DNA of 64,000 nt from Anaerolineae bacterium (GTDB lineage: Bacteria > Chloroflexota > Anaerolineae > Aggregatilineales > Phototrophicaceae), in NCBI GenBank assembly GCA_020849765.1, contig JADLAY010000017.1, positions 44,906-108,905 on the forward strand, given 5' to 3'. Within the stretch, counting starts at the first letter, position 1. Each line of letters begins with the position of its first letter. The notes beneath the pieces are model-generated. The model was not told the DNA's origin and did not search any database. It was given only the letters and a program-made list of their open reading frames with translations. The position numbers were made by a program, and so were the translations under genes. Shown piece by piece: positions 8,119-44,603 of the stretch.

Positions 8119-8199
8119 TGTAGCGGATGGCGACGCAAATCAGGTTGCGGTCTCATGTAGGGGCGAGGCGATGCCTCGCCCTGGGTCGCCCTACATGAG
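8119..8199. repeat. REP-like elements (family A, GTAG-headed palindromes)
   Basis: GTAGGGGCGAGGC-GAT-GCCTCGCCC at 8157-8181, nested in the outer inverted repeat CTCATGTAGGG..CCCTACATGAG (8152-8199). A degenerate GTAGCGGATGGCGACGCAAATC at 8119-8143 resembles the REP at 33380. Confidence 0.6.
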
Positions 8200-11326: not shown

Positions 11327-12199
11327 CTAACCCGATTCGTCGACGCCGTGGACGATGCCATCACGTTCGAACTCGATCCAGTAGTGATCGGCGAAGGCCG
11401 CCAGCGCGGGGATGCGCCCGATGCGATCGTCGAGCGCAGTGAGTACACGCAGCAACGGAGGGCGCCGCTCGATCACGCCATAGATGTCGCTCGGCGGCAG
11501 CCACAGGCCGAGCGGCTCGACGCGCGTCCGCCGGAACCACGGCGCGAAATCACGTGCCAACTTGCCGGGGGATGGGTAGAAGATGGCGGGGGCGGACAGG
11601 GCACGCCCTGTCCCTACAGGCAGGTCGTGATTTGTAGGGACGTCATGCTTGGCGTCCGCCGTCGTGCGCTTGCCTTCGAAGGTCGTCCCACCGCCCCAGC
11701 GCCGGAAAGCGACGTCGAATTCACCGTGCAGCGCATGCCAGCCGATCTCCCACAGGCACAGCGGCGGCATGACGCCGAAGGCCGCCCGCCCGCCCGGCGC
11801 CACGATCGTCGCCAGCCACGCCGCGAGAGGCTGCCAGCCGCTCAGGCAGTTGAGCACACCGAAGTTGGCGAAGACGAGATCGACCTTCTCCTCCGCCGGA
11901 TATGGATTCAAGTCGCTAAGGTCAAGATGTTCGACGCGCACGTTGGCATACCCGGCCAGCTTGGTGCGGGCGGCATCGAGCATCGCTTCGCTGGCGTCGG
12001 TCGCGATCACATGGACGCCGCGCCGGGCCAGATGCAGCGCATCCTCGCCCGTGCCGCAGCCGAGTTCGAGCGCCGTCTCGCCGGGCGCGATCAGCCGATC
12101 CAGCCGTGCGTGGACGCGTTCGCGCAGGTGACGCGCGATCGGCGAGTCCGTGAAGTCGGCGTCATAGGTCGGCGCGAGCGAGTCGAAAGCTGCAGGCAT
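11327..12199 (-). CDS. Class I SAM-dependent methyltransferase (with an in-frame REP-doublet insertion)
   Basis: Motif I ALELGCGTGEDALHLARRG. Starts 6 nt after the radical-SAM stop (operon). Confidence 0.8.
   Translation of the reverse strand: MPAAFDSLAPTYDADFTDSPIARHLRERVHARLDRLIAPGETALELGCGTGEDALHLARRGVHVIATDASEAMLDAARTKLAGYANVRVEHLDLSDLNPYPAEEKVDLVFANFGVLNCLSGWQPLAAWLATIVAPGGRAAFGVMPPLCLWEIGWHALHGEFDVAFRRWGGGTTFEGKRTTADAKHDVPTNHDLPVGTGRALSAPAIFYPSPGKLARDFAPWFRRTRVEPLGLWLPPSDIYGVIERRPPLLRVLTALDDRIGRIPALAAFADHYWIEFERDGIVHGVDESG
11594..11657. repeat. REP doublet (family A) inside the methyltransferase CDS
   Basis: GGACAGGGCACGCCCTGTCCCTAC, then a 16-nt spacer, then GTAGGGACGTCATGCTTGGCGTCC. 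Translated in-frame as ..HDVPTNHDLPVGTGRALSAP.. The first unit is identical to 39082-39105. Confidence 0.7.
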
Positions 12200-15510: not shown

Positions 15511-15534
15511 GGGCGCATCACGATGCGCCCCTAC
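15511..15534. repeat. REP-like element (family A)
   Basis: GGGCGCATC-AC-GATGCGCCC followed by CTAC. Its reverse complement is GTAG plus a palindrome. Confidence 0.5.
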
Positions 15535-27825: not shown

Positions 27826-27870
27826 TAAAAACAGGCGGCGCATCGGTCAAAGATGCGCCGCCTGTTTGTT
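27826..27870. terminator. Bidirectional rho-independent terminator
   Basis: AAAA-ACAGGCGGCGCATC-N7-GATGCGCCGCCTGT-TTTGTT (14-bp stem) between convergent genes. Confidence 0.8.
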
Positions 27871-32932: not shown

Positions 32933-32960
32933 GTGGGGCGAGGATTGCGCCTCGCCCCAC
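32933..32960. repeat. REP-like palindrome (GTGG head), probable terminator of the flotillin gene
   Basis: GTGGGGCGAGG-ATTGCG-CCTCGCCCCAC, 12 nt after the TAA stop. Related to the core at 8157-8181. Confidence 0.5.
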
Positions 32961-33379: not shown

Positions 33380-33404
33380 GTAGGGATTTGGCGACGCCAA
33401 ATCC
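33380..33404. repeat. REP-like element (GTAG + perfect palindrome)
   Basis: GTAG-GGATTTGGCG-A-CGCCAAATCC. Confidence 0.55.
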
Positions 33405-37119: not shown

Positions 37120-38775
37120 ATGCCTAGTGCATTCATCTCTTATCGCCGCGTCGAAAGCGCTGCCCTTGCCACGCTGATCGCCGTCACCTTGCAAGACAAG
37201 CATGGCATTGAAGTTTTCGTCGATACCCGCAGTACCGACGGTGGTGGCCTGTTTCCTGACCGCTTGCGCCGCGCCATTGAACATTGCGACGTATTCGTTT
37301 GCCTGCTTGGCGCGACGACGCTGGAATCCGCCTGGGTGATGGAAGAGATCGAACATGCGCATAACTTGCGCAAGACGATGATCCCGGTCTTCCAGGAACG
37401 TTACGTTCCGCCCAACCCAATTCCCAGCGTACACGTCGAAGCACTGCTGCAATCGGATGGATTGCAGGTTCTTGATGTGCGCAACGTGTACGTCGATCAA
37501 GCTATCTCCGACTTGGCGTCAATGATCAGAAGATCCGTCGGTGCTCCAATGCCGCCGCCCAGGCGAGGCATCGGGTTACCTCTGATTGCCGCAGTCTTGG
37601 TGTTGCTCGCGTTAGTCGCCCTTGGCATCTTCCTGGTGTCTCGCGCCATGGAATCCCCCACTTCAACAGCCAGTCCGACACAGATCGCGGGTGGTGTGAC
37701 CGCCAGCACCACCATCGAGCAACCCACCGCTGCACCGACAGAAGATGCGGCTGGCACACGGGTCGCCCAATTGCAGGCCAGCCTGACCGCCTTGGCGCAA
37801 CTTCAAATCGTAGGGGAAGAAACCGCGACGGCGGACGCCGCAACGCGTGGTGCTGCTGCACAAATCGATGCGACTTTGCGGGCAGCCGCGGACACCGCGA
37901 CCGCGGCTGCCCTCGCTATCACGCAATCCGTATTGGGTGAAACGGCGACTCAGCAAGCCATTGACGCGACCGCGATAGCTAGTGTATCGACAGATACTCC
38001 CACCCCATCCGCGACACCTACGCCTATCACACTGGAATATGCTTACGCCCAGGCAGTAAATTATGATGATGGTCAGGGAAATACGGCATGGACGCCTATT
38101 GCATATACGTTTGGGGATGGCGTGACGATGGTTCTAGTACCGACGGGCTGCTTTTTGATGGGTAGCAGCGAAGGTAATATTAACGAACAGCCCATCAATG
38201 AGCAGTGCTTTGTCGTGCCATTCTGGATCGACCAGACTGAAGTGACACAGGCCGATTTTGTACGTCTGAGTGGACAAAAGGCGGCCCCGAATGAATTTCC
38301 TGCTGACCAACACCCCGTTGAGAATATCACTTGGTTCGAAGCACGTAATTTCTGCGTGTTGCGGGGTGCGCGCTTGCCAACAGAGCGCGAATGGGAATAT
38401 GCAGCCCGCGGCCCTGAAGGATGGATCTACCCATGGGGAAACATGTGGGACACGAGCTATGCTGCATGGAACCGGAGTAGATCGCAAAGAACCGCCATCG
38501 TGGGAACAGCATCAAATGGGGTTTCCTGGGTCGGTGCACAGGATATGAGCGGCAACGTCTGGGAGTGGGCGAGCTCCCTTTACCAGCCGTACCCCTATGC
38601 GGCAGACGATGGACGAGAGGGGGATATGAGAGACCTTGCGGATGCTCAACGTGTGTTGAGAGGCGGTTCTTGGTACTACGTCAGTACTATTGGCCTACGC
38701 GCGCCTACGCGCAGCGGACTCGACCCAATAGCCAAAGACAATCTATTAGGTTTCCGTTGCGCCCGCGATGTCTGA
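37120..38775 (+). CDS. TIR domain - TM - Ala/Thr-rich linker - FGE-sulfatase (SUMF1-like) domain fusion protein
   Basis: TIR_2-like FISYRRVES..CDVFVCLLG..SAWVMEEIEHA. TM IGLPLIAAVLVLLALVALGIFLV. C-terminal WIDQTEVTQADF, ENITWFEARNFC, RLPTEREWEYAARG, RVLRGGSW, GFRCA. Confidence 0.8.
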   Translation: MPSAFISYRRVESAALATLIAVTLQDKHGIEVFVDTRSTDGGGLFPDRLRRAIEHCDVFVCLLGATTLESAWVMEEIEHAHNLRKTMIPVFQERYVPPNPIPSVHVEALLQSDGLQVLDVRNVYVDQAISDLASMIRRSVGAPMPPPRRGIGLPLIAAVLVLLALVALGIFLVSRAMESPTSTASPTQIAGGVTASTTIEQPTAAPTEDAAGTRVAQLQASLTALAQLQIVGEETATADAATRGAAAQIDATLRAAADTATAAALAITQSVLGETATQQAIDATAIASVSTDTPTPSATPTPITLEYAYAQAVNYDDGQGNTAWTPIAYTFGDGVTMVLVPTGCFLMGSSEGNINEQPINEQCFVVPFWIDQTEVTQADFVRLSGQKAAPNEFPADQHPVENITWFEARNFCVLRGARLPTEREWEYAARGPEGWIYPWGNMWDTSYAAWNRSRSQRTAIVGTASNGVSWVGAQDMSGNVWEWASSLYQPYPYAADDGREGDMRDLADAQRVLRGGSWYYVSTIGLRAPTRSGLDPIAKDNLLGFRCARDV

Positions 38776-39313
38776 TTGCGACCACACTTACCCCCAGCGC
38801 AAATCGCCTCGTCTCCGCGACTATGATTACGCACAATCCGGTGCATATTTCGTCACCATCTGTACCTATCGACGTGAGCATCTCTTTGGCGAGGTCGTCG
38901 ATCAACAGATGCATCTGTCGCGGATGGGATCGATTGCTCATGACCTGTGGTACACCATCCCCGATCATCATTCGCAGGTCGAACTCGATGCGTTCGTCGT
39001 CATGCCCAACCATGTCCACGGCATCATCGTTGTAGGGACGCCGCGTGCGGCGTCCGGCGGCGAGAATGATGGGCGATCGGCGGACAGGGCACGCCCTGTC
39101 CCTACGGAATCGCTCGGAGCGATCATCGGTGCGTACAAGTCCGCCGTGACACGCACCGTCAATCAGGCGATGAGGTTGGTCGCGCCGACGGTCTGGCAGA
39201 CGCGCTATGACCATCACATCATTCGCAGCGAGCACGATCTAGACCGCATCCGCGCCTACGTCGCCGACAACTCCGCGCGATGGCTGGATGACACGCTGTT
39301 CACAAAAGGATAG
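38768..39313 (+). CDS. REP-associated tyrosine transposase (RAYT, IS200/Y1 HUH family)
   Basis: YDYAQSGAYFVTICT, HUH motif MPNHVHGIIV, VWQTRYDHHIIRSEHDL..YVADNSARW. The ATG overlaps the upstream stop (ATGTCTGA). Carries its own REP doublet in-frame. Confidence 0.8.
   Translation: MSDCDHTYPQRKSPRLRDYDYAQSGAYFVTICTYRREHLFGEVVDQQMHLSRMGSIAHDLWYTIPDHHSQVELDAFVVMPNHVHGIIVVGTPRAASGGENDGRSADRARPVPTESLGAIIGAYKSAVTRTVNQAMRLVAPTVWQTRYDHHIIRSEHDLDRIRAYVADNSARWLDDTLFTKG
39032..39105. repeat. REP doublet (REPIN-like) inside the RAYT CDS
   Basis: GTAGGGACGCCGCGTGCGGCGTCC (39032-39055) and GGACAGGGCACGCCCTGTCCCTAC (39082-39105) in inverted orientation. Translated as ..GTPRAASGGENDGRSADRARPVPTE.. Confidence 0.7.
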
Positions 39314-44498: not shown

Positions 44499-44530
44499 AA
44501 AAAACCCGCGTCATTTGGCGCGGGTTTTTA
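44499..44530. terminator. Bidirectional rho-independent terminator
   Basis: AAAAAA-CCCGCG-TCATTTGG-CGCGGG-TTTTTA between the MMPL stop and the tRNA 3' end. Confidence 0.8.
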
Positions 44531-44532
44531 TA

Positions 44533-44603
44533 CTGGGGGACCTGGATTCGAACCAAGATCACCTGGGCCAGAACCAGGCGTTCTGCCGTTGAACTATCCC
44601 CCA
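44533..44603 (-). tRNA. tRNA-Gln (anticodon CTG)
   Basis: Hand-folded cloverleaf. Acceptor TGGGGGA/TCCCCCA; D stem GTTC/GAAC; anticodon stem CCTGG/CCAGG with loop TTCTGGC; T arm CTTGG-TTCGAAT-CCAGG; discriminator G. CCA is not encoded. Confidence 0.85.

Follow-up and report, generated by a model that had tools for sequence, protein, structure and literature searches.

In-frame REP hairpins in a RAYT gene of an uncultured Anaerolineae bacterium and their constancy as nucleotide sequence

The stretch of DNA considered here (the window; 64,000 nt of contig JADLAY010000017.1 from an Anaerolineae bacterium) carries a single gene for a REP-associated tyrosine transposase (RAYT), a domesticated transposase and here a TnpAREP-like protein of the HUH-Y1 type, where REP denotes a repetitive extragenic palindrome. 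The gene itself contains a pair of GTAG-headed REP units, termed u1 and u2, that are read through in frame, and a second in-frame pair is found 27 kb away in a gene for a class I S-adenosylmethionine (SAM)-dependent methyltransferase (Table 1). A preliminary description of the window had pointed to both placements, and the open reading frames (ORFs) and their peptides are as it quoted them. The RAYT product is 100% identical to the NCBI entry 'MAG: transposase [Anaerolineae bacterium]'. At its start the gene shares 8 nt with the end of an upstream TIR/FGE-sulfatase ORF, and its stop is 3 nt from a convergent L-serine dehydratase gene, so that flanking REPs have no space at this locus.

What kind of enzyme is encoded? 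The Pfam Y1_Tnp profile matches with 30.7 bits (gathering cutoff 23), but only over the C-terminal half, and the profile match to the protein is split by the insert in the loop. When the PDB was searched with a profile of 41 homologues, the sole match was the Escherichia coli TnpAREP structure 4ER8 (E 3.6e-6). Foldseek, run against the PDB with the AlphaFold model of the protein (mean predicted local distance difference test score, pLDDT, 83.9), also ranked 4ER8 at the top (E 1.3e-7), followed by the ISDra2 and IS608 TnpA proteins of the IS200/IS605 family; sequence identity to 4ER8 is about 17%. Residues H82-V-H84, W143-Q144 and Y164 are invariant in the homologue alignment (A1). The catalytic residue is Y164, the aligned counterpart of the catalytic Y115 in E. 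coli TnpAREP; the tyrosine of 'GAYKS' is not catalytic. H84 and Y164 are 80 aa apart, the protein ends 17 aa past Y164 with no C-terminal extension, and a PQRKSPRLxGYDY motif is conserved. Against the orthologue at locus L115, whose synteny with the window rests on the serine dehydratase gene, the ratio of nonsynonymous to synonymous substitution rates (dN/dS) over the core is 0.20 with a dS of 0.49. By these comparisons the gene is intact and under purifying selection.

The units u1 and u2 form a doublet with heads outward, whose ends GTAGGGAC...GTCCCTAC are complementary, i.e. the REPIN-like or 'double foot' form; on the coding strand u2 is written GGACAGGG-cacg-CCCTGTCC-CTAC. The doublet is placed between the HUH strand (beta3) and helix alphaC. 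In the model, residues 90-115 are coil with a pLDDT of about 60, between a strand (82-89) and a helix (116-135), and the methyltransferase insert (approximately residues 175-205) has a pLDDT of 45-61. Both inserts are thus predicted to be in surface loops, that of the RAYT disordered, in agreement with an expectation of the preliminary description. The 24-nt unit GGACAGGGCACGCCCTGTCCCTAC has exactly two sites in the window, at 11594 and 39082, with none expected in 100 shuffled sequences even when 3 mismatches were allowed; the sharing of one identical unit by the two doublets had been noticed from the start. In single-strand folding, the minimum-energy structure of each doublet pairs both units end to end in one long REPIN-like hairpin, with modest z values of -1.5 to -2.5. 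Rfam gave no match at the hairpins, its sole match in the window being a tRNA.

The units can be compared at the DNA level in seven RAYT genes, which form two independent groups of three and four. In group 1 (the window, L115 and L120), u1 and u2 together show 0/48 nt differences in every pair, while nucleotide divergence of the coding cores is 14.9%, 27.5% and 24.3%, and that of third positions 23-46%. At the core rate the probability of such identity is 4e-4 to 2e-7. In group 2 (L022, L123, L124 and L125) identical units GTAGGGACAGGGCCTGCCCTGTCC and GGACAACGCAGGCGTTGTCCCTAC are present in 4/4 genes, again with 0/48 differences in all 6 pairs; the cores are here 61-77% identical in protein and differ by 25.6-35.6% in nucleotides and by 47-63% at third positions. 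The probability per pair is 4e-4 to 7e-10 across both groups; pairs within one group share ancestry and are not independent, so these values are taken per group and are not multiplied.

The base right after u2 does vary (ACG vs ACA), and the spacer between u1 and u2 has 3 substitutions in 26 nt against each of L115 and L120. Each of these two genes also has an extra, independent 18-nt half-unit duplication at the 3' end of the spacer. Group 2 spacers are 14-35 nt long and cannot be aligned; at the junctions, the flanking codons of beta3 and alphaC hardly vary. In u1 the third position of each of the eight codons is four-fold degenerate, and because of this the invariance of u1 does not come from selection on the peptide. 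On these comparisons, the REPs within RAYT genes are held constant as DNA, by selection or by homogenisation. Their invariance shows that they are not simple drifting passengers.

Is the insert a recent arrival or an inheritance? In a first search it was also found in relatives at 81% and 73% protein identity. Among 108 homologues that could be parsed, the loop after the HUH motif ranges from 9 to 92 aa, and at least 57 of them have VGTxxxxS or DxAxxVPT peptides in this loop. On a tree of the cores (an approximate neighbour-joining tree, unbootstrapped and thus without support values), loop types largely cluster, with exceptions: VGTxPAxS...DxAGxVPT doublets mark one large group and VG[ML]RRASS singles another, and further groups have loops of 9-13 aa without a REP. 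That loop architecture largely follows the core tree suggests inheritance of the inserts and not sporadic gain. In the case of the window, L115 is syntenic and carries the same units, so the doublet was probably inherited with the gene; in L120 the doublet is kept in a different genomic context. The REP-less, short-loop forms make up entire clades of close homologues, and the insert is therefore dispensable for the protein family.

An independent view of the loop comes from loci fetched by a u2-type pattern alone. Seven of these contain RAYT homologues, and in 6/7 the unit is in the same loop of the gene, read VGTGxALS or DRACPVPT. Four of the six are from Bacteroidota (L033 Weeksella, L029 Chryseobacterium, L074 Cytophagales and L040 Bacteroidales), and their loops hold a double-foot unit, GGACAGGGC..GCCCTGTCC, with tandem half-unit repeats before it (VGTGQNN x3, DVGTGH x3) and low-complexity runs after it (PPPP, QSQQ). 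Across the sequences compared, REP units are gained, lost, swapped and half-duplicated in place. A 1206-aa ORF annotated as Y1_Tnp (L124, 13337-16957) was considered as a giant REP-filled RAYT and rejected, as REP-derived loop peptides are absent and its only IS200-like part is a C-terminal piece. In translation, by eye, it seems to have an N-terminus like that of a response regulator, then a long acidic stretch of low complexity, and an IS200-like C-terminus with no obvious HUH motif.

The preliminary description identified the RAYT and the in-frame units of both genes correctly, but these findings alter part of the initial picture. A sporadic or self-targeting insertion into the RAYT, as first raised, is not supported: the insert is common to relatives, has counterparts in the same loop of at least half of the parsed homologues and largely follows the core tree, and its REP units are more conserved than the adjoining codons. 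The preliminary description named ancestral, conserved peptide sequence as what would speak against it, and for the RAYT half of this holds: the segment is ancestral and conserved, but as DNA hairpins and not as a protein motif. A conserved protein motif is rejected by the invariance at synonymous sites together with the hypervariable loop of the family.

The methyltransferase insert behaves differently. Its two units, the copy of u2 and a unit termed A, form a heads-inward doublet. Alignment of orthologues supports an insertion, as had been expected, with both units, one, the other or neither in the same loop of orthologues at 71-83% protein identity. Both are at the site in L116 (83%). L118 (76%) has unit A alone, as a perfect palindrome. 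In L119 (76%) the unit-B position holds another perfect palindrome, GGACGAGG/CCTCGTCC, with two base pairs changed on both arms, and this is the only unit at the site; L117 (71%) has neither unit, with an unrelated short element in their place. In more distant orthologues the segment is mostly missing. Unit A of the window differs from that of L116 at 4/24 positions and from that of L118 at 3/24. Judged from the alignments, this insert is a passenger in a tolerant loop, where units are gained, lost, replaced and left to decay. In L116-L119 another variable loop of the protein carries a different short element, NH(R/G)xTE(I/F/S)TE(G), encoded by CACAGAG-type DNA. This element also fills the REP site in L117, and the window gene is without it (corresponding site 11900-11935).

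Other palindromes in the window belong to the same class. Perfect GT[AG]G-headed hairpins with stems of at least 7 bp number 11, vs 3.1 +/- 1.9 (maximum 6) in Markov simulations, and the hexamer GTAGGG/CCCTAC occurs 24 times vs 11.0 +/- 3.5 expected, this over-representation being assessed at the level of the 64-kb window. Seven palindromes had been listed at the outset; six are well formed (8157, 15511, 32933, 33380 and both doublets) and the seventh, at 8119-8143, is only degenerate. The REPs at 8157, 15511 and 33380 consist of GTAGGG, a stem of 8-9 bp and a loop of 3-4 nt. All four single units lie outside convincing genes, whereas both doublets are intragenic. The double-foot REP at 32933-32960 has an orthologous site in L115 (position 3829), where the stem is equal and the loop differs (attgcg vs cgcgat). 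Two further palindromes, of a terminator-like kind, were noted and are included in Table 1.

Table 1. Positions of the genes, REP units and other palindromes of the window (numbering from its first nucleotide)
Feature	Position	Strand	Description
RAYT / TnpAREP-like HUH-Y1 gene	38768..39313	+	181 aa; HUH H82-V-H84, W143-Q144, catalytic Y164
REP unit u1	39032..39055	+	GTAG-GGACGCCG-cgtg-CGGCGTCC; read V-G-T-P-R-A-A-S; 8-bp hairpin
Inter-unit spacer	39056..39081	+	26 nt, peptide GGENDGRSA
REP unit u2	39082..39105	-	GTAG-GGACAGGG-cgtg-CCCTGTCC, GTAG head on minus strand; in the gene (A)DRARPVPT
Methyltransferase gene, class I SAM-dependent	11327..12199	-	290 aa; hosts the second REP doublet
Copy of u2 (unit-B position)	11594..11617	-	Read VGTGRALS; same sequence as 39082-39105 and as the orthologous unit of L116
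REP unit A	11634..11657	+	GTAG-GGACGTCA-tgct-TGGCGTCC; 7/8 stem positions pair; gene strand reads DAKHDVPT
Degenerate REP remnant	8119..8143	+	Relative of the 33380 unit; no proper palindrome
Extragenic REP	8157..8194	+	GTAG-GGGCGAGGC-gat-GCCTCGCCC, then a second CCCTAC foot; divergent intergenic region
Extragenic REP	15511..15534	-	GTAG-GGGCGCAT-cgtg-ATGCGCCC
Extragenic palindrome, foot at both ends	32933..32960		GTGG-GGCGAGG-...-CCTCGCC-CCAC; 12 nt past the stop of a Band_7 gene
Extragenic REP	33380..33404	+	GTAG-GGATTTGGC-gac-GCCAAATCC
ORF overlapping the RAYT start	37120..38775	+	N-terminal TIR, hydrophobic stretch (may span membrane), C-terminal FGE-sulfatase
tRNA gene	44533..44603	-	Rfam, 62.5 bits
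Terminator-like palindrome	44500..44529		Adjoins the tRNA gene; AAAAACCCGCGTCA/TGGCGCGGGTTTTT
Inverted repeat	27829..27867		Perfect, 16 nt, AAACAGGCGGCGCATC / GATGCGCCGCCTGTTT, 7-nt loop, no GTAG foot; probably a terminator

The REP family extends well beyond the window. A scan of genome contigs with the pattern GTAGGGACAGGGCNNGCCCTGTCC gave at least 114 loci in several phyla; megablast of the window against the loci listed gave no match. At L123, an extra copy of the unit labelled ub is present 48 nt upstream of the RAYT homologue, as a flanking unit. In Aggregatilineales SYSU G02658, a set of regularly spaced matches was considered as a CRISPR array and rejected as such, since its 'spacers' are identical; it consists of tandem 78-nt REP doublets similar to bacterial interspersed mosaic elements (BIMEs). 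The array unit at L044 (3019-3700) of this genome is GTAGGGACAGGGCCTGCCCTGTCC + 18 nt + GGACGCGACAGGTCGCGTCCCTAC + 12 nt. Arrays at L044, L037, L045, L056, L075 and L079, on the chromosome and the plasmid with several on the plasmid, have periods of 72-103 nt; that of L044 was read, and the others are estimated from the spacing of matches.

The company kept by these RAYT genes may also be mentioned. In addition to the TIR/FGE-sulfatase ORF of the window, a TIR-NACHT-FGE-sulfatase protein (L124, 5208-8405) is encoded directly upstream of a RAYT homologue on the same strand, and a TIR-HEAT protein (L123, 7905-9074) about 0.9 kb upstream of another. Either chance, in genomes rich in TIR genes, or a recurrent neighbourhood may account for this.

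In-gene REPs of RAYTs have been described before. Quentin et al. (2018; BMC Genomics 19:475, PMC6006769) found in-frame intragenic REPs between HuH and Y to be a unique feature of TnpAY1 subclass 2.4. They reported for this subclass a highly variable beta3/alphaC insertion, modelled as a peripheral extension, double-foot REPs, an enlarged HuH-Y distance (median 88 aa), the absence of a C-terminal extension and a short conserved N-terminal motif. The window gene has each sequence feature given there for the subclass that was open to comparison. REPs of subclass 2.4 in their Table S1, GTAGGGACGCACTGCGTGCGTCC among them, have the same form as the units of the window, and the inserts were treated as probably neutral loop decorations. 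Subclass 2.4 corresponds to RAYT Group 4 of Bertels et al. (2017), a group often met in Cyanobacteria, Chlorobia and Caldilineae. In many other proteins, in-frame intragenic GTAG REPs, often as dimers of 20-30 aa, were catalogued by Di Nocera et al. (2013). The novelty implied by the preliminary description is thus not sustained, and the window adds one further example from an uncultured Anaerolineae together with one more REP-decorated protein. No later work on intragenic REPs of RAYTs after Quentin et al. (2018) was found in a literature search, and the supplements of that paper give no Chloroflexi genus names.

The window gene is very probably an ordinary RAYT of TnpAY1 subclass 2.4 (Group 4), in which REP hairpins of its own kind fill the loop and are translated in frame. 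Several points weigh against this assignment. Membership in subclass 2.4 is judged from features and not from the authors' profiles, and the score with the NCBIfam profile REP_Tyr_transpos, 53.2 bits, is below the cutoff of 80. The REPtron layout, with REPs flanking the gene, is not seen at the window RAYT, the closest REP outside genes being about 5.4 kb away. A scan of the Joint Genome Institute (JGI) metagenomes with u1 gave one match only, which is intergenic and not in a RAYT. Finally, residues 148-149 (39209-39214) are swapped: the window protein has RYDHHIIR where nearly all homologues, including the relative at 81%, have RYHDHIIR. The two positions align with W99 and E100 of E. coli TnpAREP, which are listed as GTAG-contact residues, and because of this HD-to-DH swap the activity of the enzyme on GTAG REPs is not assured.

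How might hairpins come to fill the loop of a subclass 2.4 RAYT? By analogy with the biochemistry of E. coli TnpAREP and IS200/IS605, the enzyme would bind folded single-stranded REPs by way of the hairpin and the GTAG foot, and would cut and rejoin DNA beside them. Copies might in this way reach intergenic DNA and, on rare occasions, coding loops that tolerate them, where survival would be limited to copies that preserve the frame and are free of stops. Slippage driven by the hairpins could then yield the variation in loop length.

Why should the 48 nt within the RAYT be constant? Several answers can be weighed, and the least credible of them is that the segment is ordinary ancestral protein sequence, its palindromes and GTAG ends being coincidental or driven by codon usage and unrelated to REPs. 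The peptide is indeed conserved in the two closest relatives, but the identical 24-mer in an unrelated gene, where none is expected by chance, the presence of like hairpins in intergenic DNA, a loop that is hypervariable or missing in homologues and disordered coil in the model, and conservation that falls at synonymous sites make this explanation highly improbable. A tentative alternative is that the doublet is a selected, sequence-specific cis element and not a neutral decoration. It could be a permanently linked master REPIN, whereby enzyme and substrate are inherited together, or an operator by which the RAYT would sense or restrain its own expression, and the exact sequence would be held by the sequence-specific recognition of the enzyme. 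Selection of this kind would explain why the 48 nt are the least variable nucleotides of a gene in which synonymous sites are nearly saturated, and why units in a passenger gene decay. Consistent with it are the absence of any difference in the three pairs of group 1 and the six of group 2, where third positions differ by 23-63%, the four-fold degenerate codons of u1, for which peptide selection is no explanation, the first base past u2, which does differ, the freely varying spacers and the nearly constant beta3/alphaC junctions. Units of the same kind in the methyltransferase decay or are replaced (3-4/24 differences, plus loss), the doublet of L120 is kept in its other genomic context, and no other REP is within 5 kb of the window RAYT. 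Whole clades of close homologues, however, have REP-less loops of 9-13 aa, the DNA-level comparison covers seven genes only, and gene conversion or re-insertion could produce the same conservation in place of selection.

This last point is itself a rival account, in which the units in the gene are continually overwritten, by gene conversion from dispersed copies or by repeated RAYT-mediated replacement at a hot spot where existing REPs attract new ones, and the in-gene copy has no function. Donors of the u2/ua family are abundant, with the many loci in several phyla and the BIME-like arrays, and L123 has its extra ub copy just upstream of the gene. The half-unit duplications and unit swaps point to a recombinationally active loop, and at the same site of the methyltransferase L119 has another perfect palindrome. 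Yet unit A of the methyltransferase was not overwritten and has decayed in two lineages; u1 occurs only once in the 64 kb of the window and has one metagenome match, so that its donors may be scarce; and the junctions of the units are constant. Selection in cis and continual homogenisation are given about equal weight, each a possibility to be held with some doubt.

The example of a subclass 2.4 RAYT from the window adds a contrast to what was known: the units inside RAYT genes are unchanging where the host codons have diverged by 15-36%, vs methyltransferase units that drift, are lost and are swapped. Should selection be the cause, synonymous recoding of the hairpins would offer a simple genetic handle on the coupling in cis of enzyme and repeats, a question not addressed in the literature searched.

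How does the system compare with those already known? The TnpA proteins of IS200/IS605 share the HUH/Y1 fold and the recognition of single-stranded DNA hairpins, but there the hairpins are the ends of a mobile insertion sequence (IS) that contains the gene, whereas here they are inside the ORF of a gene that is syntenic in one relative examined. The REP/BIME system of E. coli TnpAREP (the REPtron; 4ER8; subclass 2.2, Group 2) has the same fold with the catalytic tyrosine in the last helix, GTAG-footed hairpin substrates and two REP types in inverted doublets, and BIME-like tandem arrays are found in relatives. It differs in that the E. coli REPs are longer, bulged and imperfect and flank the gene, while the window has perfect stems of 8-9 bp inside the gene; the enzymes themselves have low identity (about 17%), and that of the window is without the C-terminal tail. 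The REPIN-RAYT systems of Pseudomonas (Bertels and Rainey, 2011; Groups 2 and 3) are alike in their inverted doublets able to fold into one long hairpin, in a REP sequence that is long conserved, and in a RAYT that appears single-copy (here within 64 kb), vertically inherited and under purifying selection. There, however, the REPINs are extragenic and flank the RAYT, and the units of a doublet are near-identical, whereas the two stems differ here.

Closer in placement are the GTAG/CGTC REPs of Di Nocera et al. (2013) and the Rickettsia palindromic elements (RPE), which are likewise small palindromic repeats, often dimers of 20-30 aa, in frame in protein loops. Orthologues differ in whether they carry such repeats, as is also seen for the methyltransferase. 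They are hosted, however, by other proteins, often the products of DNA repair genes, and here by the presumed mobilising enzyme itself. The nearest system is subclass 2.4 (Group 4), with which the window RAYT and its homologues share the variable beta3/alphaC insertion (9-92 aa) and the in-frame REPs between HuH and Y. Also in common are REPs with GTAG plus GGAC/GGGC and a short stem with a G/C-rich base, REPs of the 'double foot' form (seen here in the palindrome at 32933-32960 and at the outer ends of the RAYT doublet), the lack of a C-terminal extension and the conserved N-terminal motif; subclass 2.4 is known from Chloroflexi (Caldilineae), Cyanobacteria and Bacteroidetes. It is different in that the locus of the window leaves no room for flanking REPs, and in that inserts regarded by Quentin et al. 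(2018) as probably neutral are represented here by units that are invariant at synonymous sites across diverged genes.

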